A stretch of 64,000 nt of DNA from NCBI GenBank assembly GCA_036703095.1, contig DATNPS010000014.1:3822-67821 (forward strand), in the 5' to 3' direction. Below the pieces are notes generated by a model. It was not told the DNA's origin, did no database searches, and worked only from the letters and a program-made list of their open reading frames with translations. The DNA is from Crinalium sp. (lineage in GTDB: Bacteria; Cyanobacteriota; Cyanobacteriia; Elainellales; Elainellaceae). Shown in pieces: positions 2,577-20,787 of this stretch; within the stretch, counting starts at the first letter, position 1; every line of letters starts with the position of its first letter. Position numbers and translations under genes: made by a program.

Positions 2577-5500
2577 ATGGAATTGAATAACCAACTATGG
2601 CAGGGAACCCAGAAGAATACGCACATCAGAGCTGTTTTAGGGATGATTTTGCTCATCATAGCTGGGTGGTTGGGGAATTATTTCAGCTGGTCGTTCTTTT
2701 TCCATCTCGACTTTCTGTTTGGGACGATCGCCGTCTGGCTAGTACTGGGTCTATACGGGCAACGTTGGTGTATTCCAGCCGTTATTCTGGCTAGCAGTTA
2801 CACCTACTTCCTCTGGAAGCATCCCTATGCCATCATCATCTTCACTTGTGAAGCCTTATTTGTCAGTTGGTTATTTCGTCGCTCCCGCCAAAACCTTGTT
2901 CTGCTAGATGGCATCTACTGGATATGCATTGGGATGCCTCTGGTCTGGGTGTTCTATCATCACGTCCTGGATCACGATGCGACCCAGACCACCATCATCA
3001 TGCTGAAGCAGGCGGTCAATGGCATCTTTAACGCCCTGGTTGCCAGCCTGATTCTGATCTATCTTCCCATCCATCGCTGGTTTAACCGTCCTCAGGGCAT
3101 CAGTTCCCTTTCTCTGCAACAAACCTTATTCAACCTGCTCATTGCCTTTGTCTTCTTCCCCACCTTGATGCTGATGGCATTGGACAGCCATCGTGTGGTT
3201 CATAACATTGAAGTAACTGCCCAGGAAGAACTCAGGGCAACATCGATAGAATTAGGGGCACAAATCGATGCATGGCACGAGCAACTGTTGCACGCCACAG
3301 GAGAGTTAGCCCAAGTTGCGGCTCAGTCCAACCTGACTCAGACCATTCAATTGCAGCAAAGTACAGAACTCACCCAACGAGAATTTCTAGATTTTCATAC
3401 CCTCTATGTGGTTACTCCTACGGGCGAAGTCAGGGCGGTTTCTTCTGAATCAAATGTGTCAGCAGACGCCACTACAGCATTTAGTCTGGCGAGTGTTCCC
3501 TATTTTGAAATGATTCGTAACACTCGTCAACCGACCTTATCAGGTCTGTTGACCCCATCGAGTGGCATATCCACGGCTGGGGTGATTCTGAGTGTTCCTG
3601 TGATGCAACAAAATCGTCTATTGGGGTTTGTTATCAGTGAGATTGATTTAAATCGCATTGAGCGTCTCTTCAAAACGTATACCCATAAGGGGCTGCAAAT
3701 TACGCTGCTCGATCGCAGTAACACCATCATCACCAGCACTCAGAGCGATCGCATCGTTACCCAAACCTTTGACCCACAGCAGGGGGGCGAAATTCAGGCG
3801 ATCGCCCCCGATAGCTATCAGTGGTTTCCCACAACGGGCAGCTCTATGCTGATGGTGCAGTGGACTAATTCCCTCTTTGTGCGGCAAACTGCGCTGAAGA
3901 ATCAGATTCCCTGGAAATTGCTGATCGAGGTTCCTGCCGCCCCCTTCGTTTCGCAGGTGTTCCAAGTTCACGTCAGAAGTCTGACCATTCTGATGTTGAT
4001 TTCGGGATTAGCTCTAGCATTGGCAACCCTACTGACTCGCCGATTGGTCAGTCCCCTCTCCCAGCTCGCACGGGTTACCACAGACCTGCCCAATCAATTA
4101 GTCGAGCAAAAATCGATTGACTGGCCCAGCAGCTCCGTCATGGAAATTGGCTCCCTCGTCCGCAACTTTAAGGTCATGTCCTCGACCCTGACGCAAAAAT
4201 TTCAGGAGTTGCAAAAGGCTAAAGAAACGGCTGATGCGGCAAATCGGGCGAAAAGTCAGTTTCTCGCCAATATGAGCCACGAGCTGCGGACGCCCTTGAA
4301 CGCCATTCTCGGCTTTACTCAACTCTTGACGCGTAACGCCCCTCCCGGATCAGAAACCCCAGAACTCGCGATTATTCAGCGCAGCGGCGAGCATTTGTTA
4401 GAGTTGGTCAGCGATGTATTGGAAATGTCTAAGATTGAGGCAGGTCGAGTCGTCCTCAATGAAACTAGCTTTGATCTCTATCTTTTGCTCGACACTCTAG
4501 AAGAGATGCTGCAATTCCGGGCTGAATCCAAAGGACTGCAACTGGTGTTTAGCTGCTCACCCAATGTTCCCCGATATGTCCGAACGGATGAGCGGAAACT
4601 CCGTCAAGTTTTACTCAACTTGCTGGGAAATGCGATTAAGTTTACGGAAGCGGGACATGTCATGTTACGGGTGTCATCGGTCATTGATCATTCGTCACTC
4701 GTCACTAGTGAACAGCAAATCATTGACGACCGACAAATAACCAATGACAACCAACAAATGACGATCTGCTTTGAGGTTGAAGACACCGGGCCGGGGATTG
4801 CGGCCCATGAGATGAATCAGTTGTTTGAGGCGTTTTCCCAGACAGAAATCGGACAGAAATCTCAGCAGGGAACAGGGCTAGGGCTCACAATTAGTCGGCA
4901 GTTTGTGCGCTTAATGGGGGGAGATATTACAGCTGACAGTGAGTTAGGCCAGGGTGCCGTCTTTGCCTTTGCGATTAAAGTCGGGTTGGGAAATCCTGCG
5001 GAAATTCAGGTGCAACAGCCCTCTCGACGGGTCATTGGGCTTGCCCCCGATCAACCGAAATATCGCATTCTGGTGGTCGATGATCGCTGGGTGAATCGCC
5101 AATTATTGCTGAAACTGTTGGAACCGATCGGGTTTGAAGTTCGCGATGCTGAAAATGGGCAGCAGGCGATCGCCCTCTGGGAGGAATGGCAACCTCATTT
5201 AATCTGGATGGATATGCGGATGCCTGTGATGGATGGCTATGAAGCGACCCGGTACATTAAAGCCCATTTGCAAGGTCAGGCAACGGTGATTATTGCCATC
5301 ACAGCCAGTGTATTTGATGAAGAGCGGGCAATAGTTTTGGCTGCTGGCTGCGATGATTTTGTCAGGAAGCCCGTCTGGGAAGAAATCGTATTTGAGAAGA
5401 TGACTCAATATTTAGGAGTTCGTTATCTTTATGAAGAGAATGATCAGAAAGACACTCAACATGAAGGAATGAGCGCATTAAACAATGGAATGAATGAGGT

Positions 5501-5732
5501 TAAACTGCGTCCGTCGTTACTCCTATCCTCGGCTTCGCTTCAGGTCATGCCTTCTAGTTGGGTTGCTCAACTGCACCAGGCAGCGATGCAACTCGACGAT
5601 AAGCAAATTCTCTCGCTGGTCGCGACGATTCCCCCAGAACATGCTGCCCTTGCCAGCGCCCTGACGGATCTGGTCAACCGAGTGCGTTTTGATACGATCG
5701 TCAATCTTTCTCAACCCGTTGTTCAGACATGA
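2577..5732 (+). CDS. Hybrid sensor histidine kinase (multi-pass membrane N-terminus, extracytoplasmic sensor region, HAMP-like linker, HisKA, HATPase_c, C-terminal receiver)
   Basis: 1051-aa ORF. The H-box is [17 protein letters not shown] boxes are [18 protein letters not shown] and [10 protein letters not shown]. The receiver is [12 protein letters not shown]...[15 protein letters not shown]...KP. About 6 hydrophobic helices occupy the first 200 aa. An AAGGGAGA SD-like motif lies upstream of ATG 2577. Confidence 0.9.
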
Positions 5733-8125
5733 ATAGTGAACAGCCCAGGGCAACTAAAGGCAATATTTTGATTGTCGATGATGCATTGGACAATCTCAAT
5801 CTGTTGCACGCAACGCTGACCCAACAGGGGTACGAGGTGCGTAAAGCGCTCAACGGCTCAATGGCCCTGATGGGGGTACAGGCGGCTCCCCCCGACTTGA
5901 TTCTGCTGGACATTCGGATGCCTGATATGGATGGCTATGAAGTCTGTCAACGGCTGAAGGCATCCGAGGTAACCTATGATATTCCGATTATTTTTCTTAG
6001 CGCTTTGGATGAATCGCTGGACAAAGTGCGGGCGTTTTCATTAGGAGCAGCAGATTACATCACCAAACCGTTTCAAACTGAAGAAGTCCTCGCTCGGATT
6101 GAGAATCAATTAGCGCTTCAGGCTGCCAAAGCAGAAATTCGCAGGTTCAATGCTGAACTGGAACAACGGGTGCAGCAACGCACCGAGGAATTGCAGCGGG
6201 AAGTGCGAGAGCGCCAGCGGGCTGAGGACGCGCTCCGTCAACAGGCAGAACAACGGCAACTGGTTATGGCGATCGCCCAACGCATTCGTCAGTCCTTAGA
6301 CCTGGACACCATTCTCAATACCACCGTGGCCGAAATCCGCCAGCTTTTGCAAGTCGATCGCGTTCTCATCTATCGATTTGAGCCAGATTGGAGCGGCATG
6401 GTCGTGGTTGAGTCTGTGGTCAGCCGTGAACACTCCATTATCGGCAAAACCTTCATCGATCACTGCTTCCAAGAAGGCTTTGTGGAGCAATACCGACAGG
6501 GGCGGATTCAGAACCTGGAGGATATTTATACCGGAGGGTTGGCTGAGTGTCACGTTGATCTCTTAGCCAGTTTGGGGGTGAGGGCAAACTTAGTCGTGCC
6601 CATTGTGCAGGAGGAAACCCTGTGGGGGCTTCTCCTCGCCAACCAGTGTGTTCAGCCGAGACGATGGACACCTCTGGAAGTAGACCTGATGCAGCAGCTC
6701 TCAACTCAGGTGGCGATCGCCATTCAGCAGTCCGAACTCTATCATCAGGTACGACAATTCAACGTTGAATTAGAGCGCCAGGTTCAAGAGCGAACCCAAC
6801 AATTGCAGCGATCGCTCGACTTTGAAGCCGCTCTCAAACGCATTACAGATAAAGTTCGAGATAGCTTAGATGAAAGCCAGATTTTGCAAGCGGCAGTGCA
6901 AGAACTGGTGCATGTCCTTCAAATTGAATGCTGTAATGCAGGAATTTACAACGCTGAACTGACGACATCGACCATTACATTTGAATACACCACGTCTTTG
7001 CCCTACTATCAGGGTTTGGTGGTGCAGATGGTTGATTATCCAGAAATTTATCGCCAACTCCTGCAACATCAAAGCTTACAACTGTGTAATGCCCACCCTC
7101 GATTGATTCGTGAAACGTATTACCAATTCGCTATCCTGGCCTATCCAGTCGCAGATGATCAGGGCGTAATTGGAGATTTGTGGCTATTTAAGCCCCAAGA
7201 ATCCCTGTTTGAAGATCTGGAAGTGCGGCTCGTGCAGCAAGTTGCAAACCAGTGTGCCATTGCCCTGCGCCAAGCACGGCTATATGCGACGGCCCAAACC
7301 CAGGTGGAAACCCTGGAAAGCCTGCACCAGCTTAAGGATGATTTTCTCAGCACGGTTTCCCATGAATTGCGATCGCCTGTGACGAACATGAAGATGGCCA
7401 TTCAAATGCTGGACGTTGCCCTTAACCAGATCGAAACGAGTTTTGCAGCCATAGAAACAGACTCGCCATCCAACAAAACGGTTCAAAGAGCTATCCACTA
7501 TTTACAAATTCTCGACAGCGAATGCGAACGAGAAATTAATCTAGTCAATGATCTGCTGGACTTACAACGATTGGAAGCGGGTGTTCAAGACACCATCATG
7601 GATTGGATTGACTTGAATCTCTGGCTCCCTACCTTAATCAACGCCTTTGAGGAACGCGCGCAGGCTCGACAGCAACAGTTACAGATCGAAATACCACCCC
7701 AACTCCCTCAAATCTGCTCCGACTCTGATGCTTTGAGCCGCATCCTCACAGAACTGCTGCACAATGCTTGCAAATACACCCCACCCGGAGAAACGATTAC
7801 CGTAACGGCTCAAGTCGATCCATCTTCTCGCTCCTCGTTGCAATCTTCATCCTTAAATCAAGCCAAAGGAGCGGGCGCAGCGATGCGTCTCTCAACCTTC
7901 TTACTGAGCATCACTAACTCCGGGGTCGAAATTCCTGCCGATGAACTTCCTCGTATTTTCGAAAAGTTTTACCGGGTTGTCAGTGCCGACCGATGGCAGC
8001 AAGGGGGAACGGGGTTGGGGCTAGCTCTGGTGAAAAAGCTGGTAGAGCACTTGGGAGGAACGATTGAAGTCAGAAGCATTCAGAGTCGAACAACTTTTAG
8101 GATAGAGTTGCCTGCTACTTGTTGA
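5729..8125 (+). CDS. Receiver-coiled coil-GAF-GAF-histidine kinase (response regulator/sensor kinase fusion)
   Basis: 798-aa ORF. The N-terminal REC is [10 protein letters not shown]...[14 protein letters not shown]...ITKPF. Two GAF-like segments are [26 protein letters not shown] and [14 protein letters not shown]. The H-box is [12 protein letters not shown] and the G-box is [15 protein letters not shown]. The start overlaps the upstream stop (ATGA at 5729..5732). Confidence 0.9.
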
Positions 8126-8546: not shown

Positions 8547-9155
8547 GTGGTAATCACTTTGCGCGATGAGAATCCCTTTTCGCTTGAGTGCCCGATGAAT
8601 CAAGATCATTATCCTCAGCAGCTTGTTGTTCCCCCCTCTCAGCAGGATCACTACCAGGGAGAGCTGAATGCCCCAGTGGTGCTTGTGGAATATGGGAATT
8701 ACCAATGTTCCCAGTGTGGGGAAGTACATCGATTAATTCAGTCAATTCAGCAAGATTTCGCGTCCGTGTTTCCTGAGGGGAATGAGATATGTGTCGTGTT
8801 TCGTCATTTTATCGAGCATTTAATCCATCCTCAAGCACAAAAGGCAGCAGAAGCAGTGGAAGCCGCTGCCGCACAGGGACAGTTTTGGCAGATGCACAAC
8901 ACCTTATTTGAGCATCAACAGGAGTTAGGAAACGGCTATCTGGTGGAATATGCCAATCATCTAGGACTTGATATCTGCCAGTTTCTGCAAGATATCTCCC
9001 AACAAGTTCACATTGATCGCATTAACAGAGACATTGAAAGTGGAATCCAGAGTGACGTAAAGGCTGCTCCAGCCTTGTTCATTAATGGAATTCGCTACAC
9101 CGATCGCTGGAATCTTGAGTCCTTGATAGTAGCCCTGATCAATGCAAGTCAATAA
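8547..9155 (+). CDS. DsbA-family thiol:disulfide oxidoreductase (thioredoxin fold, CSQC active site)
   Basis: Motifs are DHYQGELNAPVVLVEYGNYQCSQCGEV (CxxC), QGQFWQMHNTLFEHQ and APALFINGIRY. The start is ambiguous: GTG 8547 in the track, or ATG 8595 (MNQDHYPQQ...). A 9-codon micro-ORF (8540..8569) with a strong AGGAGG sits just upstream. Confidence 0.8.
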   Translation: MVITLRDENPFSLECPMNQDHYPQQLVVPPSQQDHYQGELNAPVVLVEYGNYQCSQCGEVHRLIQSIQQDFASVFPEGNEICVVFRHFIEHLIHPQAQKAAEAVEAAAAQGQFWQMHNTLFEHQQELGNGYLVEYANHLGLDICQFLQDISQQVHIDRINRDIESGIQSDVKAAPALFINGIRYTDRWNLESLIVALINASQ

Positions 9156-9190
9156 GCTAATACCGTTTTTATATAAAGATGCGCTGAATT

Positions 9191-9251
9191 GAAAAGGGGA
9201 TGAAGGGGGCGTTGCCCCCTTCGTGGGGGTTCCACCCCCACCCCCCTTTTC
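9191..9251. repeat. Y-shaped G/C-run structure: outer stem GAAAAGGGG/CCCCTTTTC enclosing two hairpins (GAAGGGGGC-GTT-GCCCCCTTC and GTGGGGGT-TCC-ACCCCCAC)
   Basis: All three helices are perfect Watson-Crick pairings read from the sequence. It lies 36 nt after the DsbA-like stop. Confidence 0.55.
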
Positions 9252-9317
9252 ATAAAGTTTCAGCTTCATATTGAATTGGTACAACCAAGAAATTATCAGA
9301 ATATCGAGGTGAAACCT

Positions 9318-9740
9318 ATGAACCAGCCTGCACACTCTCAGCTTGTCCCTATTGCAACAAGAAATGAATATCACTGGCAGCACTATTCAAACCCCATTCA
9401 ATTTCATCCTCAATCTCATCTTTTGTCTGCAAAACGTAGCCGCAATCGAGGGATCATTTTATCGCGCCAGGGGTGGCAAAAGTTGATGCAAGCTGGAGTG
9501 CTGTATGACGAGTTTGGAAGTCGCTACACCTATGAGCAGTTGAGCGATCGATCGTTTTTAGATGAGCGCACTGTTAGCCGATTATTAAGTTGTGAAGTAA
9601 AAGTGGGCAAGCGCACGATCAAGACATTTTTTTACGCCTTCAATTTAATATTGGAGGCTAGTGATTACATTACATCTAAGAGTAATGGAATGAATGCTAT
9701 ATCGCCTGATGCACCCACTCGCATTGCTTTAACGCGATAG
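9318..9740 (+). CDS. Small protein consisting of the HTH-like N-terminal module found on cyanobacterial STAND NTPases (stand-alone paralogue of 62874.. N-terminus)
   Basis: KRSRNRGIILSRQGWQKLMQAGVLYDEFGSRYTYEQLSDRSFLDERTVSRLLSCEVKVGKRTIKTFFYAFNLILEASDY aligns residue for residue with KRKRRGVILSQEGLQRLQEAQ...YAYTLEQLSQQTGLSVRSISRLQSCKVAVDRQTLEEFFRAFNLTLIEQDY at the other end of the window. The track ORF starts at TTG 9276. ATG 9318 has a GAGGTG upstream. Confidence 0.6.
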   Translation: MNQPAHSQLVPIATRNEYHWQHYSNPIQFHPQSHLLSAKRSRNRGIILSRQGWQKLMQAGVLYDEFGSRYTYEQLSDRSFLDERTVSRLLSCEVKVGKRTIKTFFYAFNLILEASDYITSKSNGMNAISPDAPTRIALTR

Positions 9741-9862
9741 ACTGAACAACTTTTGATTTGTTGATGAGCTAAGCGTTGCGATCGCATGAGTTACAGGTTT
9801 GATTTCTTGCAGAACATTTGGTAGATACTCCGTTGGTACACAGCTAGACGTAGGACTGCAAA

Positions 9863-10597
9863 ATGATACAAGCTATTTCTCGCCCCAAGTCTGACGATTG
9901 TGCTAATCAAGCTGTAAGGAAAGCTATAAGATCACACATTCTGCTGATCGAAAGTGAGAGCGAATTAGCTCAGCTAGTCGCCCAAGAACTTGATCGTGAA
10001 GGGTATCACGTTAGCTTGGTTGAAGATGGCACGAGTGGATTAATAGCTGCTCGCCAAACTAACCCGAATTTGATTATCGTGGCTTGGGCTCTTTCAGGGG
10101 TATCCTGTGTAGAGTTTTGTCATCGGCTACGCTCGACCTACAACTATGTGCCCATTATTGTATTAACTCGTGAAGGACAGGTTCGCGAACGAGTCATGGG
10201 TTTAGATGCAGGGGCGAGTGATTGCCTGAGCAAACCCTTTGTTGTAGAAGAACTAATTGCTAGAGTTCGGGCGCACTTAAGACAAGGCCCCAAAGACGCG
10301 CATCTCCTACAATTTGAGCAACTCGTTCTTAATCAGAAGACACGTCAAGCCTACTACAAAGATCAAGAAATTGAGCTAACAGCGAAAGAGTTCGATCTGT
10401 TGGGATATTTGATGCGGCATCCCTTACAAGTATTGACCCGTGACCAAATTCTAGGTGGTGTTTGGGGTTACGAAAATTTTGCGGCTTCAAATGTGATTGA
10501 AGTTTATATTCGATACTTGCGAATCAAGTTAGAGGCACAAGGTGCAAAAAATTTGATTCATACAGTTAGAAGTGTGGGGTACGTATTGAGACTCTAA
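9863..10597 (+). CDS. OmpR/PhoB-family winged-helix regulator with an atypical receiver (phospho-acceptor Asp replaced by Ala)
   Basis: The receiver reads ILLIESESELAQL...NPNLIIVAWALSGVSCVEF...PIIVLTR...LSKPF. The canonical DD pair is ES, and the LD acceptor position is VA (Ala74, codon 10082..10084). The C-terminal winged helix is ELTAKEFDLLGYLMRHP...VIEVYIRYLRIKL...IHTVRSVGYVL. Confidence 0.85.
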   Translation: MIQAISRPKSDDCANQAVRKAIRSHILLIESESELAQLVAQELDREGYHVSLVEDGTSGLIAARQTNPNLIIVAWALSGVSCVEFCHRLRSTYNYVPIIVLTREGQVRERVMGLDAGASDCLSKPFVVEELIARVRAHLRQGPKDAHLLQFEQLVLNQKTRQAYYKDQEIELTAKEFDLLGYLMRHPLQVLTRDQILGGVWGYENFAASNVIEVYIRYLRIKLEAQGAKNLIHTVRSVGYVLRL

Positions 10598-10600
10598 TAA

Positions 10601-10696
10601 CTAAGTAAGTAGAAGGGCTACTTACTTAGGTAACCAGAATTAAACAACATTATAAAAACCGGGGGAGTGCTCCTTCGGGGCACTCCCCCGGTTTTT
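10601..10696. repeat. Tandem hairpins after the regulator gene: CTAAGTAAGTAG-AAGGG-CTACTTACTTAG (10601..10629) and AAAAA-CCGGGGGAGTGC-TCCT-TCGGGGCACTCCCCCGG-TTTTT (10654..10696)
   Basis: Both stems are perfect. The second is the same family as 1997..2037, and the first matches the TAAGTAGG/CCTACTTA arms that flank that copy. Confidence 0.6.
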
Positions 10697-10764
10697 AATT
10701 ACGACCATCCACTTATCATATTCAGTCTTTTTTCTGTTCACACCATTAAGGAAAACTCAAAACT

Positions 10765-11304
10765 ATGCATTCACAAGCAGCTCAAACCAACACTACTGCT
10801 GACGAGTCGGCGATCCGTGCTTTCCATCGTCAGATGATTGATGCTTGGAACCGAGGTAGCGGCGAAGGCTTCGCTGCCCCATTCAGTGAAACTGCCGATT
10901 TCCTCACGTTCGAGGGTACGCATCTCAAGGGTCGAAAAGAAATCGCTGCATTTCATCAGCAAGCGTTCGACACGGTTGTTAAAGGAACACGTCTGGAGGG
11001 CGAGGTGAACTTTGTACGCTTCGTGAACTCACAACTCGCGCTCATGCACGTATTTATCAGGGTAATACTGCCCGGACAAACCGAAGCTTCACCGTCACGA
11101 GATTCCCTGCCGCTATACGTCGTAACGAAACGCGACGAAGGTTGGCAGATCGAAGGGTTACTTAATACCCGGAAGTTAACGCTAGAACGCCAATTCTTCT
11201 TAGACGACTTTGACTCACTGAGCGCAGAGGCTCAACGTCAAGTGACTGACTTTGTTTCAGACCTGAAACAGCGCCATCGAGCTAATCAATCACAGGAGAT
11301 GTAA
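10765..11304 (+). CDS. SnoaL-like/NTF2-fold protein (SgcJ/EcaC-type)
   Basis: DESAIRAFHRQMIDAWNRGSGEGFAAPFSETADFLTFEGTHLKGRKEIAAFHQQAF is the typical N-terminal pattern of DUF4440/SgcJ-EcaC proteins. Confidence 0.7.
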   Translation: MHSQAAQTNTTADESAIRAFHRQMIDAWNRGSGEGFAAPFSETADFLTFEGTHLKGRKEIAAFHQQAFDTVVKGTRLEGEVNFVRFVNSQLALMHVFIRVILPGQTEASPSRDSLPLYVVTKRDEGWQIEGLLNTRKLTLERQFFLDDFDSLSAEAQRQVTDFVSDLKQRHRANQSQEM

Positions 11305-12693
11305 GTGAACGTTGAATACTACGATGACATTATTATCGGTGGTGGCAAAGCGGGTAAAACACTGGCACCTGCGTTAGTTGCGGCTGGACGAAAAACTGCT
11401 CTGGTTGAACGCAGCTTAAATATGATTGGGGGCGGGTGTATTAACATTGCTTGCATTCCTACCAAAACGATGGTGGCGAGCGCAGAGGCAGCTCATACAG
11501 TCCGGCATAGCGCTGCCTATGGTGTGAAAACCAACGCACCTACGGTAGACCTCGCAACGGTCATTCAACGCAAGCGATTGGTGGTGGAAGCGGCACGGGC
11601 AGCGAACTTACATAATCTTGAAACGGCTCTCGGCCACGATCTCATCATTGGCACAGCGCGGTTTGTTGCTCCTAAAACTATTGAGGTGGCAACAGCGGAG
11701 AGTATCATTCGCCATCTCACCGCCGAGCGGCTGTTTATCAATACTGGCACACGCCCATTGATTCCACCCGTACCGGGACTTAAAGAAACCGGATTTTTGA
11801 CGAGTGAGTCAATCATGGAGCTAGAACAGTTGCCTGAGCATCTGCTCATTATGGGCAGTGGTTACATTGGGCTAGAGTTTGCCCAGATGTTCCAACGCTT
11901 TGGCTGTCGCGTCACGGTGATTGGGCAAAGTGGGCGAATCTTGTCGCAGCAAGACCCAGATATCGCGATCGCTGTTCAAACTCTCCTACAACGAGACGGC
12001 ATTGATTTTTTGCTGACGTCTAAAGTATTAAACGTCGATCGTGTGGGTCATGAAACCAGTCTTCAGATCCAGGTTGCTGATCGTGAGATGAGTTTGCGAG
12101 GTTCGCATTTGCTCGTCGCAGTCGGGCGATTGCCAAACAGTGATTCCTTAAATTTAGCCGCTGCGGGTATAGAAGCAGATGCTCGCGGTTTTATTCCCGT
12201 CAACCATCGCTTAGAAACCAACGTACCGGGAATTTGGGCATTGGGCGACATCAATGGTGGGCCACAATATACCCATGTGGCGCTGGACGATTATCGGATT
12301 ATCAGAACCAACTTGATTGAGGGTGGCAACCGCAGCACACGCGATCGCCCCATTCCCTCCTGCTTGTTTATTGATCCAGAACTGGCTCATGTCGGTTTAA
12401 CTGAAACCGAAGCACGACAACAAGGATATACGATTCGAGTGGCAAAGCTAAATGCATCCGACGTTCCGCGAGCAAAAACGCTGGGTCAAATGGATGGACT
12501 GCTCAAGGCGATTGTGGATGTTGAAAGCGATCGCATTCTCGGTTGTTCCTTGTTGTGTCATGCAGCAGGTGAAATGATTTCGACCGTGCAGATGGTGATG
12601 CAAGCTCAAATGCCCTACACCGTTTTGCGCGATGGTGTGTTGACCCATCCCACCATGACCGAAGGGTTGAATCTATTGTTCTCAAAGCTGTGA
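11305..12693 (+). CDS. Class-I pyridine nucleotide-disulfide oxidoreductase (mercuric-reductase/dihydrolipoamide-dehydrogenase-like flavoprotein, no NmerA domain)
   Basis: The FAD fold is DIIIGGGKAGKT and the redox-active CxxxxC is GGGCINIACIPTK. The NAD fold is LLIMGSGYIGLEFAQ. Also present are GDINGGPQYTH and the dimerisation-domain motif THPTMTEGL. The GTG start directly abuts the upstream stop (TAAGTG). Confidence 0.85.
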   Translation: MNVEYYDDIIIGGGKAGKTLAPALVAAGRKTALVERSLNMIGGGCINIACIPTKTMVASAEAAHTVRHSAAYGVKTNAPTVDLATVIQRKRLVVEAARAANLHNLETALGHDLIIGTARFVAPKTIEVATAESIIRHLTAERLFINTGTRPLIPPVPGLKETGFLTSESIMELEQLPEHLLIMGSGYIGLEFAQMFQRFGCRVTVIGQSGRILSQQDPDIAIAVQTLLQRDGIDFLLTSKVLNVDRVGHETSLQIQVADREMSLRGSHLLVAVGRLPNSDSLNLAAAGIEADARGFIPVNHRLETNVPGIWALGDINGGPQYTHVALDDYRIIRTNLIEGGNRSTRDRPIPSCLFIDPELAHVGLTETEARQQGYTIRVAKLNASDVPRAKTLGQMDGLLKAIVDVESDRILGCSLLCHAAGEMISTVQMVMQAQMPYTVLRDGVLTHPTMTEGLNLLFSKL

Positions 12694-12751
12694 GGTAGTC
12701 AGTGAAGACTGGTTAATGCTTAAACCAATAAAGGCTGTCGCTGCCTATTGA

Positions 12752-12889
12752 CATCACTATTGTTCCACCATCAGATCCTCAGTCCTAGTGCCCTTTGACG
12801 AGACTACCAGTGCTGGTGGAAAGGCGATCGCAATTCAGTCAGATGTGTCCAAAAAGCATTGCTTAATGTATTCGACTCCATTCACTTAA
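12752..12889 (+). pseudogene. Possible fragment of a short-chain dehydrogenase/reductase
   Basis: The translation ...VLVPFDETTSAGGKAIAIQSDVSKK... resembles the GGKA-A-QADVS segment that follows the cofactor-binding fold of SDRs. There is no TGxxxGIG upstream and no catalytic YxxxK downstream. Confidence 0.3.
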
Positions 12890-12914
12890 TCGTTAACTTT
12901 TAAGGAGTAATCTC

Positions 12915-13784
12915 ATGACAACATTTCACACTGTTTCGATCGAAGGTTTAGACATTTTTTATCGTGAAGCAGGTTCCCGTGACAATCCAACCATTTTGCT
13001 GCTGCACGGCTTTCCGACTTCATCGCACATGTTCCGTAATCTGATGACTGCGTTAGCTGATCAATTCCATCTGGTTGCACCGGATTATCCCGGTTACGGC
13101 AACAGTTCAATGCCAACGGTGGATGAGTTTGACTACACGTTTGACCATATGGCGGAGATTATGGAGAAATTTATTACCGCGATCGATCTTCAGAAATACA
13201 GCCTTTACGTAATGGATTATGGTGCTCCGATCGGCTATCGCATTGCAGCAAAATATCCAGAGCGGGTGCAGGCTCTGATTGTCCAAAATGGGAATGCCTA
13301 CGAGGAAGGTCTGCGCGAATTTTGGGACCCGATCAAGGCTTACTGGCACGAGCGATCGCCCGAAAATGCGAGTAAACTCACGTACCTCGTCACCCTGGAT
13401 GCAACGAAGTGGCAATATACTAACGGCGTTCGCAATTTGGACGCAATCAGTCCCGATACCTGGAACCTGGATCAACATTTCCTCGATCGCCCCGGCAATG
13501 CTGAAATTCAGTTAGCGTTGCTGTACAGCTATGGAACAAATCCACCGTTATATCCGCAATGGCAGGAGTATTTCCGCCAGCATCAACCTCCAACTCTAAT
13601 TGTTTGGGGTCAGAACGACTACATCTTCCCTGCTGATGGGGCTTACCCATATAAGCGCGATTTGAAAGACATTGAGTTTCACTTACTGGATACGGGACAT
13701 TTTGCCCTGGAAGAGGATGGAGAGGCGATCGCCAACCACATCCGTCAATTTCTCGCGTCGCGGCTGCAACCTATTCCTGCTTAA
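12915..13784 (+). CDS. Alpha/beta-fold hydrolase (epoxide hydrolase/haloalkane dehalogenase-like)
   Basis: 289 aa with an AAGGAG SD. Motifs are [19 protein letters not shown], the nucleophile elbow YVMDYGAP (Asp-type), and a C-terminal DTGHFALEE. Confidence 0.85.
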
Positions 13785-13838
13785 GGAGAAGCTGAAGACG
13801 TAAAGGCCATCGCTCAACGTGCAAGATTGGCGAAAATT

Positions 13839-13893
13839 TATCGGAAATTGGTTTGTAGTGCGGCTGAGCCGCACTACAAACCAATTTCCGATA
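13839..13893. repeat. Perfect 26-bp-arm palindrome (TATCGGAAATTGGTTTGTAGTGCGGC-TGA-reverse complement) after the hydrolase gene
   Basis: Arms 13839..13864 and 13868..13893 are exact reverse complements. Confidence 0.7.
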
Positions 13894-14018
13894 AAGTCTA
13901 TTATTTATCGCATGGATTTCGTATATATAAATCATTGATTGCATAAATATTCTGCCCGGTTTATCTTCAAGTTGTAGAGCAACAAACCTAATTCTTGAGT
14001 TCTCAGAAGGTAAGTCTT

Positions 14019-14831
14019 ATGAATGTTTTGATTGTCTATGCTCATCCTGAACCACAATCTCTTAACGCGTCATTGAAAAATCTAGCCGTGAGAGTTTTGA
14101 CGGAAGCTGGACATTCAGTGCAGGTATCGGATTTATATGCAATGCATTGGAAGCCATCGATCGATGGAGCAGATTTTTTGAACCGCATTAATCCCGATCG
14201 CTTAGATATCATCAAAGAATCGGGTAAAGCCTTTGCTGAAGGTAGTCAAACCAACGATGTCATTGGTGAGCAGGAGAAATTGCGCTGGGCAGATGCAGTA
14301 ATTTTTCAATTTCCTTACTGGTGGTTTTCCATGCCTGCGATTATGAAAGGTTGGGTTGAACGGGTCTTTGCCTATGGATTTGCTTATGGCGTAGGTGGCA
14401 ATAATCGCAAGCGATATGGTGAGGGCAATCTGAAAGGCAAACGTGCTATGTTATCGATCACCATTGGTGCTCCCGAAAAAGATTATTCAGAACGGGGAAT
14501 CAACGGTGCGATCGCCGATCTCCTTTTCCCAATTCACCACGGTATTCTCTTCTTTCCTGGCATGAGTGTGCTGCCACCATTTCTCATTTATAGCGCAGGT
14601 CATTTAACTGCGGCAGATTACAAGCAAGTTGAGGCAGATTACAAAGTGCGGTTACTGAATTTGTTTACAACGAACCCTATCCCTTTTCGCAGCCAAAATG
14701 GTGGTGATTATGATGATGATTATCAACTGAAGTCAGGACTTGAAGGACATCACACAGGATTAAAAATTCATCAGTCTATAGATTCAAAGACACGAAAAGC
14801 AATTAAAAATTACAGCAAAGAAGTAGCTTAA
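14019..14831 (+). CDS. NQO1 (DT-diaphorase)-like NAD(P)H:quinone oxidoreductase, long form with C-terminal domain
   Basis: Motifs are MNVLIVYAHPEPQSLNASLKN, VSDLYAMHWKP, EQEKLRWADAVIFQFPYWWFSMPAIMKGWVERVF, KRAMLSITIG, LLFPIHHGILFFPG and GHHTGLKIHQSI. These track the mammalian NQO1 sequence as I remember it along its whole ~270 aa. The track ORF starts at TTG 13995. ATG 14019 is more plausible. Confidence 0.85.
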   Translation: MNVLIVYAHPEPQSLNASLKNLAVRVLTEAGHSVQVSDLYAMHWKPSIDGADFLNRINPDRLDIIKESGKAFAEGSQTNDVIGEQEKLRWADAVIFQFPYWWFSMPAIMKGWVERVFAYGFAYGVGGNNRKRYGEGNLKGKRAMLSITIGAPEKDYSERGINGAIADLLFPIHHGILFFPGMSVLPPFLIYSAGHLTAADYKQVEADYKVRLLNLFTTNPIPFRSQNGGDYDDDYQLKSGLEGHHTGLKIHQSIDSKTRKAIKNYSKEVA

Positions 14832-14844
14832 CGTGAGTCTCCAA

Positions 14845-14883
14845 CAAGGGGGGTAGTAGTGCAGCGCACTACTACCCCCCTTG
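14845..14883. repeat. Perfect 18-bp-arm palindrome CAAGGGGGGTAGTAGTGC-AGC-GCACTACTACCCCCCTTG after the NQO1-like gene
   Basis: Exact reverse-complement arms lie 14 nt after the stop. Confidence 0.7.
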
Positions 14884-14911
14884 GGAAAACGAAAAGAAAA
14901 CACGTTTTCTT

Positions 14912-15123
14912 AGGAATTCGATGAACGGGCTTTTATAGCAATCGAGGGGTTAGTTAGGACGGGGTGCAGGGGTGGAACCCCTGGCCAGGGGCGCAGCCCC
15001 AATACTCCCTGTCCTAACCATCTCAACGGTTGCTATAGAGGTGATGCGCGCCGCGCGTCACCTCTAAAAGCCTGATTTTGCGTGCGCGACGCGCACGCAA
15101 AATCAGGTTTTGGAATTTACGTC
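14912..15123. mobile_element. Composite GAATTC-ended palindromic element (family 1) carrying nested inserts: a family-2 element (14953..15018), palindrome GGTGATGCGCG-C-CGCGCGTCACC (15040..15062) and palindrome TGATTTTGCGTGCGCGACGCGCACGCAAAATCA (15073..15105)
   Basis: The ends AGGAATTCGATGA and GGAATTTACGT match the termini of the other four family-1 copies. The inner arm GGGCTTTTATAGCAA pairs with TTGCTATAGA...TCTAAAAGCC, which is itself split by the 15040 palindrome. Confidence 0.6.
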
Positions 15124-15126
15124 AGC

Positions 15127-16050
15127 TTAAGATTTTTTTGGAGCTTCAATTGCTGCCGCCACTTCCCTGAGTGTATTTCTCAACCAAAGATGTCCTGGAT
15201 CTTTGCTTAAACGTTGATGCCATAGCATTCCCAACGGGAATTTGCGCTGGGGAAAGGGTGGTTCGTAAGCAATCAGATCCGTCAATTGCTGGAACATCTC
15301 CACCAATCGACGGGGTAGAACCGCAATATAATCGGTCTGAGCCAACACGATCGGAGCTAACAGAAAACTCGGCACGGTAAATGCAACACGTCGCTTTAAA
15401 CCCATTTCTGCCAAAATTTCATCCACAAATCCGGTTGCATCACCTGTACGTGAGATTAACAACTGTGGTGTGGCGACAAAAGATTCCATAGTCAATGGTT
15501 TAACTGCCAGAGGATGTCCTTTTCGCATGACACAGAGAAATCCCCCAGGTTCTAGCAAATGTTGGTGCTCAAACTGAGGCTGGAAAGACTCAAAGGGAGC
15601 GATCGCCAAATCGACCGCGTCTTCATCCAGCAATTTCATTCCCCACGCATCGTCCGCATAGATTAATCGCAAGTCAATGTTTGGGGCTTCCCGACTCAGT
15701 TTTACACCAAGACTGGGTAATAAAATCGATGCAGCAAAGTCATTGGTTGCTAGCTTGAATGTGCGACTGGTAGTAGCAGGATCAAAAACTTGAGGTTCCA
15801 ACGCAGTCTGGATTTGCATTAAGGCTTGTCGCAGCGGAACAGCTAGTTCCTGTGCTTTGCGCGTTGGCTGCATTTGGTCGGCACGACGAATGAACAAATC
15901 GTCTTTGAGTAGATGTCGCAAACGATTGAGTGCTGCACTTACCGCAGGTTGACTTAACCCAATGCGCTCTCCTGCCCGCGTCACATGGCGTTCAGCCATG
16001 AGTGCATCAAACACAACCAGTAGATTCAGATCGACCCCTGCCAAATCCAT
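15127..16050 (-). CDS. LysR-family transcriptional regulator
   Basis: 307 aa. The N-terminal HTH is DLNLLVVFDALMAERHVTRAGERIGLSQPAVSAALNRLR, followed by a LysR substrate-binding domain. Confidence 0.9.
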   Translation of the reverse strand: MDLAGVDLNLLVVFDALMAERHVTRAGERIGLSQPAVSAALNRLRHLLKDDLFIRRADQMQPTRKAQELAVPLRQALMQIQTALEPQVFDPATTSRTFKLATNDFAASILLPSLGVKLSREAPNIDLRLIYADDAWGMKLLDEDAVDLAIAPFESFQPQFEHQHLLEPGGFLCVMRKGHPLAVKPLTMESFVATPQLLISRTGDATGFVDEILAEMGLKRRVAFTVPSFLLAPIVLAQTDYIAVLPRRLVEMFQQLTDLIAYEPPFPQRKFPLGMLWHQRLSKDPGHLWLRNTLREVAAAIEAPKKS

Positions 16051-16511: not shown

Positions 16512-17240
16512 ATGAAAATTGAACAAACCGACGTGATCATTTCGACACCGGATGGACAGATGCCTGCCGTCCTGGTTGCACCCAGTCGTCCATCAGAACC
16601 GTCCCCCGCTGTGCTTCTGCTAATGGAGGCGTTTGGAGTTACGTCACACATACAAGATGTAGCAACCCAAATTGCGAATGAAGGGTATGTTGTTTTGATT
16701 CCAGACTTATACTACCGGGAATTGCCCAACAACAAGTTTGGCTATGATGAAGTAGATCAGGCAATGGCAATGATGTGGAGATTGAATTTTGGTCAACCCA
16801 TGGAAAATGACCTGAAAGCCGCCCTGACGTATTTGAAAACGCTTGCCAATGGATATGTCAATCGCATTGGGGTGACTGGATTTTGCCTGGGAGGGGGACT
16901 GTCTTTTCTAACGGCTTGCCGATTCTCCAATGAAATTGCTGCTGTCGCTCCCTTTTACGGCATGGTGCTTGACGAGTGGATTGATGCAGTCAAGGATATT
17001 ACCGTTCCCACGTATTTGTTTTTTGGAGGAAGAGATTCATTTATTCCGGGCGATCGCATCCAGCAAATTGACACCCGCTTTCGAGAACTGGGGAAAGACT
17101 ACAAACTGAAAATCTATCCTGATGCCGGACATGGCTTTTTCTGTAACGAGCGATCGGATTACAACCCCAATGCTGCCGCCGATGCCTGGGCAGAGTTAAA
17201 GCAGTTTTTTGAAAAATATTTATCAAACAAATTCGACTAA
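16512..17240 (+). CDS. Dienelactone hydrolase family protein
   Basis: 242 aa. Motifs are AVLLLMEAFGVTSHIQDVATQIANEGYVVLIPDLYYR, the nucleophile motif GVTGFCLGG, and a C-terminal YPDAGHGF. Confidence 0.85.
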   Translation: MKIEQTDVIISTPDGQMPAVLVAPSRPSEPSPAVLLLMEAFGVTSHIQDVATQIANEGYVVLIPDLYYRELPNNKFGYDEVDQAMAMMWRLNFGQPMENDLKAALTYLKTLANGYVNRIGVTGFCLGGGLSFLTACRFSNEIAAVAPFYGMVLDEWIDAVKDITVPTYLFFGGRDSFIPGDRIQQIDTRFRELGKDYKLKIYPDAGHGFFCNERSDYNPNAAADAWAELKQFFEKYLSNKFD

Positions 17241-17270
17241 AATTACCGGAACTGCCATGAAGATACCTAC

Positions 17271-17378
17271 GTAAATTCGATAGCGCCATTTCCGCCGCCC
17301 GTTGGGTAGCGGAAATGGCGCAAATTGGTATCCCGTGCGTCGTGCGGGATACCAATTTGCACATTCGTTGAATTCAAG
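17271..17378. mobile_element. Family-1 GAATTC-ended modular palindromic element (two internal hairpins)
   Basis: The layout is GTAAATTCGATAG, hairpin GCGCCATTTCCGC/GCGGAAATGGCGC, hairpin AAATTGGTATCCCG/CGGGATACCAATTT, then CGTTGAATTCAAG. Confidence 0.6.
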
Positions 17379-17397
17379 TTAAACCCGGAAGGTTCAG

Positions 17398-17995
17398 CTA
17401 TCGGACTGCTGTGAATTTGCGGAGGGGTTGGATAACCACCAGCATGAACCGTCCAGGCACATCGACTTTGAATTCCACCATCGTTGCAACCTCAGGAGGA
17501 ACATTAGTCGTCTGGACGTTGGTCATCGGTGCAGAGGTGAGTGAGGCTTCAGGGTAAACGCGATCGAACACTTCACCAATCATATGGAAGGCAGAAGTAT
17601 AGTTCGGGCCACCAACGCCGAAGAAGATGCGAACCGTTTCACCGACTTTGGCATGAAGGGGAGATTTTTCTGCCAGTGCTTTCGATGCTCCATTGAACAC
17701 AAAGTAGGAAGGTTGTTCGCTCAGCAGCTTATCGACGCTGAATTCTTGGTTACCGCGATCGCTAGCCGCTTGAACCGTATAAAGTTCACCTTGCATCACG
17801 TAAAATTCGCGATCGACTTTGGATAAACCACCTTCGGGTTCTACCAAAATCAGACCATACATGCCATTGATAATGTGATGTGCCACCATTGGCGTTGCAC
17901 AGTGGTAAACATACAGGCCAGGGTTAATGGGCTTAAAGGTAAAGACTTTTCCATCACCCGGAGATGCTTGCGTCAACGCTCTTGAGCTAGCGTTG
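17398..17995 (-). pseudogene. nirK: Copper-containing nitrite reductase (NirK) remnant, truncated at both ends
   Basis: The 192-codon ORF begins at TTG. It contains FKPINPGLYVYHCATPMVAHHIINGMYGLILVEP (the His-Cys...His...Met copper-ligand loop) and domain-2 sequence up to VEFKVDVPGRFMLV. The first ~110 residues, which carry the N-terminal Cu-ligand histidines, are absent. The C-terminus diverges (VVIQPLRKFTAVR) where VDH... is expected. Confidence 0.75.
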
Positions 17996-18000
17996 TTAAC

Positions 18001-18106
18001 GTGAATTCAATAGCGCCATTTCAGCTACGCGTCGTGCGGCTGAAATGACGCAAGAATATGCCCAAGCGACGTGTGGACATGTTCTTGCGCAGTTGTCGAA
18101 TTCAGG
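18001..18106. mobile_element. Family-1 GAATTC-ended modular palindromic element, same orientation as 17271..17378
   Basis: The layout is GTGAATTCAATAG, hairpin GCGCCATTTCAGC/GCTGAAATGACGC, hairpin GCAAGAATATG/CATGTTCTTGC, then GTCGAATTCAGG. Confidence 0.6.
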
Positions 18107-18477
18107 TTTTACCAAGTAATTGATGTGTTATTTCTCTCCAGCGAAAGCGATATTGAAGATCAGTCCTATTTCAACATTGACACTTATTTGGGTCAAGAAT
18201 TGTGTCAGCATGTCAATTTGAGATTGAAAGATGAGGTAGCTCATAGTTAGCAAGTTTTGATTCTGAGAAAGTATTTAGTGAGAAGTAAATGTGATAGTTT
18301 CCTCACAACTTCCTCAGGTTTGGTATCTAGACTTACAGAAAGTCCAAAAGTTCTGGTGAGCAAGCTTTCTAAGCATTACTACTCAATCCACTTTTTCATT
18401 TGTGAGTTCGTGCGCGATCGCACATCCAGCTTTGATCTGGAGTTTTCACTTTAAGGCTGATTGTAGAGATTACAACA

Positions 18478-20787
18478 ATGACAAGTCCTTCTATTCGTCT
18501 CAATACGCCTAAAACGGCGACTCGCAGGTGGGGAATTAGCCTACCTGCCTGGTTAGTATTGATTTGCGTCATCATGTTTTCCGTTCTGTTAGGAGCGGGA
18601 GCCGCCATCTGGAAAAATGCACCCCCTATTCCAGCAGCCGTGGTTTCGCCTCAGCAAAACGTGCTGTTCACACAGACTGAAATTCAGTCTGGTCAAGAAA
18701 TTTACCTCGCACGCGGCGGTCAGCATATTGGCAGCGTATGGGGGCACGGTAGTTATCTTGCACCTGATTGGTCAGCAGACTTTTTGCATAAATGGGGTTT
18801 AGCTACCGCAGGTGTGTTGCAAAGTGACAATCCCAACTTTACTCAAGCGGATCTCGAAGCACTGCCAGTGGGCGATCGCGCCAGCTTAGAAGCCAGAGTG
18901 GCAGAGCAATTTAAGACTAATCGCTTTGTTCCTGACACTCAAATTTTGACACTGACAAACGCTCAGTCAAAAGCGCTGCCTAAAGTGTTTGCAGACTATC
19001 AAACGCTGTTGTCCAATGGCTCACGTGAGTTCTCCATTCCCAGCGGTTGGTTTACGAACAATGAACAAATTCGGGACGTTAGTACCTTCTTTGCCTGGAC
19101 GGCTTGGGCTGCGTCGGCAAACCGCTTTAATGCACCATTCTCTTACACCGCCAACTTTCCCCATGACCCACTGGTTGGCAATGAAGCTCCCGGTCAGTTT
19201 GTCATCTGGTCGATCGCCTCTGTGATTCTATTAATTGGTGGCATCGGCGTTTTTCTATTCGTCAACCTGAAGATGGAGGATGCAGAAGAAGTACAGGAGG
19301 TCGTCGCCCGCCCTGCCCTTCGCATTCCCACCGCTAGCCAAAAAGTCACTACTCTATTCTTTGGCGTGGCGATGGCACTGTTCCTGGTACAGATCGCCAT
19401 GGGCATGGTGACAGCTCACTATGCGGTTGAGGGAGATGGGTTCTATGGTGTCCCGCTCGATAAGTTTCTTCCCTATGCTGCTTCACGCACCTGGCACTTG
19501 CAGTTAGCGGTATTCTGGATTGCCACCTGTTGGTTGGCGGCGGGTCTGTATTTCGCCCCTCGCTTTGGTAAACAAGAGCCCAAAGGACAGGCGATCGGGA
19601 ATAGCGTACTGCTGGGTGCATTGACGGTCGTGGTCGTGGGTTCCATGATCGGATCTTGGGCAGGCATCCAAGGAATTTTGGGAACTAATCTCAGCTTCTA
19701 CCTGGGACATCAGGGCTATGAATACGTTGAACTCGGTCGCGTCTGGCAAGTTCTCCTCATCGGTGGCATGACCTTCTGGCTGTGGTTGATGTACCGCGCC
19801 CTCAAGCCTGCATTGAAACAAGAAGGCTCGAAGACTGGGTTAAATCACTTCTTCCTGTATTCTGCCATCACGATTCCTCTGTTCTACTCTGCTGGGTTGA
19901 TGTACTCAAACCACACTCCGATGAGCGTTGCTGAGTACTGGCGCTGGTGGGTGGTTCACCTCTGGGTGGAAGGGTTCTTTGAAGTGTTTGCAACCGTGGC
20001 GATCGCTTACCTCTGTAGTGAACTGGGGTTCCTGAAGCGGGAAGCAGCTCTGAGAGCCACCTATCTGACAACCATTCTTTTCCTGGGCAGTGGCATTATT
20101 GGAACGTTGCATCACCTCTACTTTGCAGGCACACCCGTTTTCATTACCGCCATGGGTTCAGTTGCATCTGCACTAGAAGTTGTGCCTCTTACACTGATTG
20201 GCTTTGAAGTAGCAAAATCTCTCAAACTCTCACAAAATGCTCAGGGCTTCTATCGAATGCCACTGCGCTTCTTCATCGCGACTTGTGTATGGAACTTGAT
20301 TGGTGCCGGAGTGTTTGGTTTCTTAATCAATCCACCAATTGTTCTTTACTACTCACAAGGCCTTAACACCACTCCAATTCATGCTCACTCAGCATTGTTT
20401 GGTGTTTACGGTTCACTGGCTCTTGCGCTCATGTTATTTGCGCTGCGAGAGATTACCCCTGAAAAAGCCTGGAATGAAAAGCTACTGCGGTTCTCGTTCT
20501 GGCACATCAACGGTGGCTTGGCCGTAATGATGATCTTCGGTCTCATCCCCAACGGTTTCTACCAGTTAGTTCAGTCTGTCAATCACGGCACCTGGTACGC
20601 TCGTAGTGCAGAGGTTATTCACTCTCGCTTTATGGAATGGACTGTTTGGCTTCGTATTCCCGGTGATGTCATCTTCACCGTTGGTGCGCTGGCAATGATG
20701 TTGTTTGTGGGTCAGGCAATCTGGGCGATCTTTCGTCAACCCACTCAAGCTCAGCCAGAGTTAGTTGAAGTCAAAGAAGTTGTATAG
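18478..20787 (+). CDS. norB: Quinol-dependent nitric oxide reductase, large single-subunit form (qNOR, NorB/NorZ)
   Basis: 769 aa. It has an N-terminal TM helix plus a ~250-aa extension, followed by a 12+ TM heme-copper-oxidase core with WWVVHLWVEGFFEVF, GTLHHLYF and HAHSALFG histidine motifs. Confidence 0.9.
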   Translation: MTSPSIRLNTPKTATRRWGISLPAWLVLICVIMFSVLLGAGAAIWKNAPPIPAAVVSPQQNVLFTQTEIQSGQEIYLARGGQHIGSVWGHGSYLAPDWSADFLHKWGLATAGVLQSDNPNFTQADLEALPVGDRASLEARVAEQFKTNRFVPDTQILTLTNAQSKALPKVFADYQTLLSNGSREFSIPSGWFTNNEQIRDVSTFFAWTAWAASANRFNAPFSYTANFPHDPLVGNEAPGQFVIWSIASVILLIGGIGVFLFVNLKMEDAEEVQEVVARPALRIPTASQKVTTLFFGVAMALFLVQIAMGMVTAHYAVEGDGFYGVPLDKFLPYAASRTWHLQLAVFWIATCWLAAGLYFAPRFGKQEPKGQAIGNSVLLGALTVVVVGSMIGSWAGIQGILGTNLSFYLGHQGYEYVELGRVWQVLLIGGMTFWLWLMYRALKPALKQEGSKTGLNHFFLYSAITIPLFYSAGLMYSNHTPMSVAEYWRWWVVHLWVEGFFEVFATVAIAYLCSELGFLKREAALRATYLTTILFLGSGIIGTLHHLYFAGTPVFITAMGSVASALEVVPLTLIGFEVAKSLKLSQNAQGFYRMPLRFFIATCVWNLIGAGVFGFLINPPIVLYYSQGLNTTPIHAHSALFGVYGSLALALMLFALREITPEKAWNEKLLRFSFWHINGGLAVMMIFGLIPNGFYQLVQSVNHGTWYARSAEVIHSRFMEWTVWLRIPGDVIFTVGALAMMLFVGQAIWAIFRQPTQAQPELVEVKEVV

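Follow-up and report, generated by a model that had tools for sequence, protein, structure and literature searches.

The stretch of DNA analysed here, called the window below, comprises 64,000 nucleotides (contig C329:3822-67821) of an assembly of 8.43 Mb in 599 contigs (98.7% complete; G000 in what follows), recognised as cyanobacterial by its relatives and its content of the HIP1 motif, and its part of interest is the spacer between a dienelactone hydrolase (DLH) gene and norB, a gene for nitric oxide (NO) reductase. This spacer holds a truncated relic of nirK, the copper nitrite reductase gene, lying between two copies, A and B, of a MITE (miniature inverted-repeat transposable element), and its only substantial frame is a minus-strand open reading frame (ORF) of 192 codons (Table 1). 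Comparisons covered the GTDB family (57 species), 401 genomes sampled across the phylum, a scan of all GTDB species and metagenome contigs, and they lean on three relatives in particular: L052 and L053, which carry the closest nirK genes, and G003, a family member with an intact nirK. Two independent metagenome contigs (L017, L018) carry the same truncated locus, 99.85-99.95% identical, which rules out an assembly artefact. In the published literature, no paper was found on this locus or on the MITE family.

The descent of the ORF from nirK is evident at both the protein and the nucleotide level. Residues 1-180 align to residues 239-417 of the 456 in PDB 6tfd/2dv6 (E 4e-74), and amino-acid identity over the core reaches 93% to L052, 88% to L053 and 74% to G003. 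Homology to the L052 gene is ungapped over 542 nt (window 17979-17438; 85.6% identity), without stops, and this alignment, of the kind that the first-pass annotation of the sequence had proposed, defines both breakpoints. Against TIGR02376, the remnant covers profile positions 100-292 of 326 and scores 178.1 bits, under the curated cut-off of 296.3 bits, a whole-protein score that the intact NirK of G003 exceeds with 339 bits. What survives is the last third of core domain I, including the Cys-His-Met copper loop, and roughly three quarters of domain II.

The losses fall on residues that bind copper (classical NirK numbering). The type-1 ligands Cys136, His145 and Met150 persist in the HC...H...M loop YVYHCATPMVAHHIINGMYG, as had been noticed at the outset, and so does the catalytic-histidine block SAFHMIGE (His255 equivalent), while the fourth type-1 ligand, His95, is gone. 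Its region, which reads HSVDFH in G003 as in L052 and L053, falls upstream of the 5' breakpoint, and the absence of the whole H-x-D-F-H ligand block bears out the earlier statement that the first copper-binding histidines are missing. Among the type-2 ligands, the histidine of the HC pair is kept, and His100 and His306 are lost together with the catalytic Asp98. At the other end, homology stops at ...GRFMLV, one residue short of the histidine in the LVDH block of the relatives, the seat of the last type-2 copper ligand, where the remnant reads LVVI; the C-terminus thus degenerates just where the first-pass annotation had placed it. The final 12 ORF codons (VIQPLRKFTAVR, with the stop at 17398-17400) find no match in any frame and are supplied by filler DNA. 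With both ends truncated, three of the seven copper ligands are lost. The last ~40-55 codons are missing from the C-terminus; the earlier estimate of ~110 missing N-terminal residues is adequate against a two-domain enzyme (99 profile positions) and too low for the three-domain lineage to which this gene belongs, for which about 250-345 residues are absent.

Nothing around the frame resembles the equipment of an expressed, exported enzyme. The ORF starts inside core domain I and therefore has neither two complete cupredoxin core domains nor an export signal; direct reading found no signal peptide in it, the leader and N-terminal parts being present in L052 and G003, and no Shine-Dalgarno-like motif before either start (TTG or internal ATG), and there is no promoter-like site on the minus strand within 17150-18550. 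The missing parts are not stored elsewhere in the assembly: tblastn with full-length G003 NirK and a TIGR02376 scan recovered no other piece of nirK from the 8.4 Mb, tblastn with G003 NirC no nirC, and tblastn with G003 RIC and CRP no further nirK parts (it placed ric, a gene for di-iron repair, on contig C229), while the other frames of 17200-18480 gave only noise. Nothing nearer than 75% identity emerged from the metagenome-contig scan, and no protein of the same architecture was found in other genomes, the shorter database matches being mostly cut-off genes on short contigs. Judged from its residues, the remnant is predicted to be unable to make a copper nitrite reductase, falling short on every functional hallmark of that enzyme (type-1 and type-2 copper ligands, complete core domains, export signal).

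Table 1. Features of the spacer between the DLH gene and norB, with the two genes themselves (window coordinates).
Feature	Position	Strand	Remarks
DLH gene	16512..17240	+	bounds the spacer on the side away from norB
MITE copy A, 111 bp	17269..17379	+	81% identical to the 111-bp consensus, full length
Unique filler, 58 bp	17380..17437		separates element A from the 3' breakpoint of nirK
Open frame, 192 codons	17398..17976	-	TTG start; gene callers also take an internal ATG (163 aa)
nirK remnant, central 180 codons	17438..17979	-	85.6% nt identity to L052 5998-6539, ungapped
Filler, 19 bp	17980..17998		separates element B from the 5' breakpoint of nirK
MITE copy B, 109 bp	17999..18107	+	80% identical to the consensus, full length
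Unique spacer, 120 bp	18108..18227		between element B and the norB control region
Conserved norB control region	18228..18477	+	conserved with G016, G026, L052
norB, 769 aa	18478..20787	+	single-subunit quinol-dependent NO reductase

By alignment to L052, the 5' breakpoint lies 19 bp from element B and the 3' breakpoint 58 bp from element A. The distance of 5-20 bp originally proposed for both therefore holds for B and fails for A, where the feature ~18 bp from the element is the stop codon of the ORF and not the breakpoint. The 58-bp filler falls outside the ungapped match to L052, has no second copy in the genome and is not homologous in any of its frames to nirK, nirC or ric, and the 19-bp filler is not homologous to the GPGGG-coding stretch conserved in the nirK genes of G003 and L052. 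Beyond element B, the 120-bp spacer is likewise single-copy in the genome and does not align to the intergenic DNA of L052 or G016 beyond the palindrome described below; homology of the norB control region to L052 extends from the start codon out to that palindrome and no further.

On the far side of the spacer, norB shows no sign of decay. Both of its Pfam domains are complete (PF22085, NorB cytochrome c-like, matched over 1-181 of 181; PF00115, COX1, over 1-436 of 436), residues 25-762 align to the quinol-dependent NO reductase (qNOR) structures of A. xylosoxidans, N. meningitidis and G. stearothermophilus with E values of 1e-181 to 1e-165, amino-acid identity is 89% to G016, 85% to G026 and 78-79% to G003, and the ratio of non-synonymous to synonymous substitution rates (dN/dS) against L052 is 0.04-0.06. 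On this evidence norB is predicted to encode an intact, full-length single-subunit qNOR, as the first reading of the locus had it.

A 16-bp palindrome, GATGAGGTAGCTCATA, at 18231-18246 overlaps a promoter-like TTGAGA-18-CATAGT (18218-18247) at its -10 element. In the form (T/G)ATGAGGTAGCTCATA the whole 8.4-Mb genome has exactly three copies of it, before norB, before ric (C229:2262-2277) and 26 bp upstream of a gene for a 154-aa globin (C407:15666-15681), and it is conserved upstream of norB in G016, G026 and L052, the last of which also carries it before nirK and before glbN-ric (5290-5305, 5545-5560 and 7229-7245). The putative operator TATGAGGTAGCTCATA has the pattern ATGAG-N4-CTCAT and is probably the binding site of an NO-responsive regulon, and by the same motif evidence the present arrangement looks like such a regulon from which nirK and nirC have been removed. 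G003 and G455 carry TTGACTTAAGTCAA instead, beside a divergent crp-family gene. In L052 (7229-8471), a truncated-haemoglobin gene stands between the operator and ric; in the window's own genome, ric directly follows the operator (C229:2261-3110) and a different globin, with its own operator, lies on C407, a difference in arrangement which indicates that the island was rearranged as well as trimmed.

The distribution of these genes places the remnant in context. Within the family, nirK is present in two of 57 genomes, the window's own and G003, and no same-class genome among the 401 sampled across the phylum has it. norB occurs in six family genomes (five full-length genes and one C-terminal fragment), four of which lack nirK, with unrelated flanks; gene content thus suggests that NO detoxification without nirK is a common state in the family. 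G003 has the order crp> <norB <ric <nirK <nirC, and its NirK combines Cupredoxin_1, Cu-oxidase_3 and Cu-oxidase_2, the N-terminal cupredoxin included. This cluster, crp / norB-ric-nirK-nirC, is complete in an oxygenic cyanobacterium (L016, G003:C15:9001-29000; 8809-15874). In the comparison of related genomes that had been proposed at the outset, relatives at the level of the family and of the taxonomic order, the latter search returning the family set again, offered neither a syntenic flank nor an empty site of the elements.

The scan of all GTDB species returned two much closer nirK relatives, L052 and L053. In L052 the order is norB(-), a 542-bp control region with two palindromes TATGAG(G/C)TA(G/C/T)CTCATA, nirK(+), a 60-codon nirC stump, a palindrome, glbN and ric. 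This order shows nirK divergent from norB to be the ancestral layout of the clade. The remnant also points away from norB and stands almost as far from it as the L052 nirK does, which marks it as an in-situ remnant and not a transposed fragment. L052 has itself decayed, by other lesions: an in-frame deletion of ~170 codons fuses GEGKLIF to VRVGDTVE in its nirK, a TAA replaces the Tyr of NGMYG, where the window's genome keeps TAT, and nirC is truncated, with norB, glbN and ric whole. The L053 nirK reads through without interruption from the edge of its contig to the natural stop. The different lesions in G000 and L052 indicate independent, parallel losses.

Substitution patterns date the truncation. 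Between G000 and L052 the core differs at 77 of 537 positions, distributed 6/6/65 over the three codon positions and without an indel, and its dN/dS of 0.03-0.05 is indistinguishable from that of norB, which indicates that the core was constrained until very recently and that the truncation is young. Three-taxon parsimony assigns 8 non-synonymous and 34 synonymous changes to the G000 branch, against 7 and 25 to L053, whose frame is uninterrupted; a neutral phase of more than 5% of the G000 branch is rejected (P<0.05, from at most 8 non-synonymous changes), which bounds neutral divergence since the loss of constraint at about 1.3% per site. On this evidence the G000 truncation and the L052 lesions are both recent. 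Among the individual changes, G162E and G163V alter a GG pair with 99% conservation over 113 homologues, V132M follows the catalytic His, and near-identical strains differ by GY versus SD (variant P0121 and relatives having GY), substitutions that may be read as small signs of present relaxation. A trend towards changes at conserved columns is weak and not significant (5/13 versus 5/31, P = 0.13), and in the tree the G000 branch is not accelerated relative to its sister. Comparisons of dN/dS with G003 and L050 are uninformative because synonymous divergence is saturated, and L017 and L018 show no polymorphism in the remnant and so give no information on its history.

The two elements belong to a real and large family, so the initial observation of two same-orientation copies with a common hairpin holds, at a frequency far beyond chance. 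Identity between A and B is 78-80%, and the GCGCCATTTC(C/A)GC hairpin is common to both. The family occupies 432 genomic places, with about 250 full-length copies at 66% to 98% identity to a 111-bp consensus, ACGTGAATTCGA...TCGAATTCACGT, which has 12-bp inverted termini and two internal hairpins; A and B align over its full length and, like it, are short, non-coding and bounded by terminal inverted repeats. Of 214 copies, 30 have a perfect 7-bp AT-rich (TAAnTTA-like) target duplication, which shuffled pairs show at a rate of 0.1%, and a duplication is recognisable in about 14-19% of all copies. The massive expansion is confined to this genome: a few other genera have small numbers of mostly partial matches (at best 73-79% over 75-102 of 111 bases), and the L052 and L053 genomes have no such MITE. 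No autonomous partner was found, pairs of termini 0.4-4 kb apart enclosing ordinary genes only in a search that was not exhaustive, and an Rfam search of the region gave no match. The family has the features of a MITE except for an identified autonomous partner.

Copy A ends in ACGTAAATTCGA...TTGAATTCAAGT and has hairpins at 17283-17321 and 17320-17360; copy B has its hairpin at 18013-18051. Neither shows a clean target duplication, the flanks of A (GATACCT / TAAACCC) matching at four of seven positions and those of B (GTTGTTA / TTTACCA) at three. Both stand at the 28th-33rd percentile of identity to the consensus, with nearest siblings at 87% (A) and 84% (B). In the second hairpin of A, the arms pair at 16/16 positions, yet both differ from the consensus. 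Covariation of this kind suggests that the hairpin arms of MITE copies change in concert, through templated repair or selection on the stem, and ages derived from MITE divergence are unreliable for that reason. Genome-wide, 52 adjacent MITE pairs lie 0.3-4 kb apart, often in both spacers beside small genes (for example C192:8550-9507 and C571:10-774). In five of the 52, the pair around the nirK remnant included, the longest frame leaves no more than 60 bp free towards either element; the other four bracketed frames look, by eye, like small complete genes, a ferritin-like and an FHA-like protein among them.

Taken as a whole, the evidence makes it quite probable that the locus holds a recent in-situ nirK pseudogene, a case of ordinary gene loss in which the MITEs are residents and not cutting agents. 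Element-driven erosion, the direction in which the first-pass annotation pointed, is an unlikely alternative; in it, insertion of the two MITEs into or next to nirK, followed by MITE-MITE recombination, transposase-mediated adjacent deletion or hairpin breakage, would have produced both truncations directly. Both breakpoints do lie near MITE ends, at 19 and 58 bp, in a family that is mobile (30/214 duplications against 0.1% of shuffles, copies up to 98% of the consensus) and expanded in this lineage only, and the lack of an intact target duplication at A and B is what recombinant or deletion-associated copies would show. Against this, the junctions are off the termini, with unique filler between element and gene on both sides; the missing duplications say little, given how few copies have a recognisable one; A and B are mid-aged and look several-fold older than the truncation of a core that lost its constraint very recently; L052 erodes nirK and nirC without any such element; and the four other tight MITE pairs bracket apparently complete frames. 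Most likely, then, the elements are residents of longer standing in the non-coding flanks, and at most local facilitators of deletion. That palindromic MITEs act as deletion hot-spots, where stalled replication or hairpin cleavage seeds illegitimate joins 19-58 bp away, seems doubtful; were it true, the MITEs would steer which accessory genes are trimmed in a MITE-swamped genome, and here would have removed the NO-producing half of the island and spared the detoxifying half.

Two further explanations fare worse. A genuine short protein, with selection acting on an expressed product of 163-192 aa that might serve, for instance, in regulation or as a cupredoxin-like protein in its own right, could draw on 180 homologous codons that are open, low in dN/dS and free of indels against relatives, and is nevertheless very improbable: the product is no domain unit, starting two thirds into core domain I and ending before the last strands of domain II; it is without one type-1 and two type-2 copper ligands and the catalytic Asp, without signal peptide, ribosome-binding motif or promoter-like site, and with a tail read from junk DNA; it has changes at the 99%-conserved GG pair and a non-synonymous polymorphism within the population; and its architecture is found in no other genome. 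Least probable of all, with hardly any chance of being right, is a captured fragment, a Pack-MITE-like MITE-nirK'-MITE composite that reached the spacer between the DLH gene and norB from another nirK copy or a foreign source. Two same-orientation MITEs do flank a gene fragment and the outer flanks of the pair share TACC, a 4/7 match, but a match of at least 4/7 is expected in about 20% of shuffled pairs, the composite unit is single-copy, it encloses filler belonging to neither nirK nor MITE, and L052 shows the position and orientation to be ancestral, so that a chance landing there is implausible. An assembly chimera was also considered and rejected, the near-identical structure being present on the two independent metagenome contigs.

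Several points weigh against a recent pseudogene with bystander elements. It is suggestive, though no evidence of a mechanism, that both breakpoints lie less than 60 bp from a MITE, which is unlikely for random points with 336-432 copies in 8.4 Mb, and a link to the elements, such as hairpin-stimulated deletion, may exist. The ages used to separate the elements from the truncation come from MITE divergence, with the unreliability noted above, and source copies may be missing from a 599-contig assembly. Purifying selection and an open frame fit continued selection on the fragment equally well, and the L052 lesions are read from a metagenome-assembled genome without a check against reads.

If in-situ gene loss is accepted, the following course of events may be proposed. 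The ancestor would have carried a small NO island in which norB and nirK faced away from each other across one common control region with palindromic operators; behind nirK came nirC, the gene for a nitrite channel, and at a greater distance a globin gene and ric. Two recent deletions or rearrangements would then have taken away, on one side, the operator and promoter of nirK with the parts encoding its signal peptide, its N-terminal cupredoxin domain and the greater part of core domain I and, on the other, the last ~40-55 codons of nirK together with nirC, leaving the central 542 bp joined to unrelated DNA. norB, ric and the globin gene would have been kept, each behind the same palindrome, and the cell would go on detoxifying NO and no longer make its own from nitrite. 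In this scheme the sequence of steps, the way in which the deletions arose and the effect on physiology are all reconstructed. The first-pass claim of a lost NO-producing step beside a retained detoxifying one is supported by the dead nirK next to norB, by the retention of norB, ric and a globin gene, by the parallel decay in L052 and by the nirK-less state of most norB carriers in the family.

The best solved match to the remnant, over its whole homologous stretch, is the three-domain NirK of Hyphomicrobium denitrificans (PDB 2DV6 / 6TFD), of which the N-terminal cupredoxin, the first His, the C-terminal His and the export signal have no equivalent here. The closest analogue in function and layout is the aniA-norB pair of Neisseria: PMC10187123 describes aniA (nirK) and norB as transcribed divergently from one regulatory intergenic region. 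L052 is likewise divergent, with palindromic operators; the present locus differs in belonging to another phylum and in its three-domain NirK, its different operator and a two-sided truncation in place of point lesions. Meningococci that have lost aniA and retained norB are known, and the outcome here resembles such isolates, nonfunctional in denitrification. In Synechocystis sp. PCC 6803, a stand-alone qNOR without NirK serves NO detoxification rather than denitrification, and four of the six norB-bearing family genomes are similarly without nirK, whereas in this genome a scar is left of the nirK-nirC partner that norB once had.

Bacterial MITEs, such as the cyanobacterial Nezha and the Correia elements of Neisseria, are reviewed in PMC10969869. 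The family described here resembles them in length (~110 bp), inverted termini, hairpins, absence of an ORF, copies in the hundreds, target duplication and an apparently intergenic position where examined; the TAAnTTA-like 7-bp duplication and the GAATTC-containing termini may set it apart from the named families, and the non-exhaustive search found no autonomous partner.

Very few oxygenic cyanobacteria have a copper nitrite reductase, and the present locus, taken with L052, L053 and G003, gives a record of a small nirK-nirC-norB-ric island in cyanobacteria that has been dismantled repeatedly and recently. That two lineages inactivated nirK and nirC independently and kept norB, ric and a globin gene under a common operator argues for selection on NO detoxification without endogenous NO production. 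Annotations should list the 163/192-aa ORF as a nirK pseudogene, and denitrification potential inferred from the presence or absence of nirK would be wrong for this organism.

Two minor observations complete the description. Inside the remnant, the S-D-R codons (AGC GAT CGC) at 17747-17754 hold a HIP1 site, GCGATCGC, and with the Y-to-D change being very recent, this motif was created inside a dead gene. In a different genus, L049 (G454:C156) carries at 8689-9039 a norB remnant consisting of the last 117 codons only, which is 93% identical to the norB of the window and only 67% identical to that of G003, the congener of G454; this degree of identity suggests another scar of the island and points to its lateral exchange.

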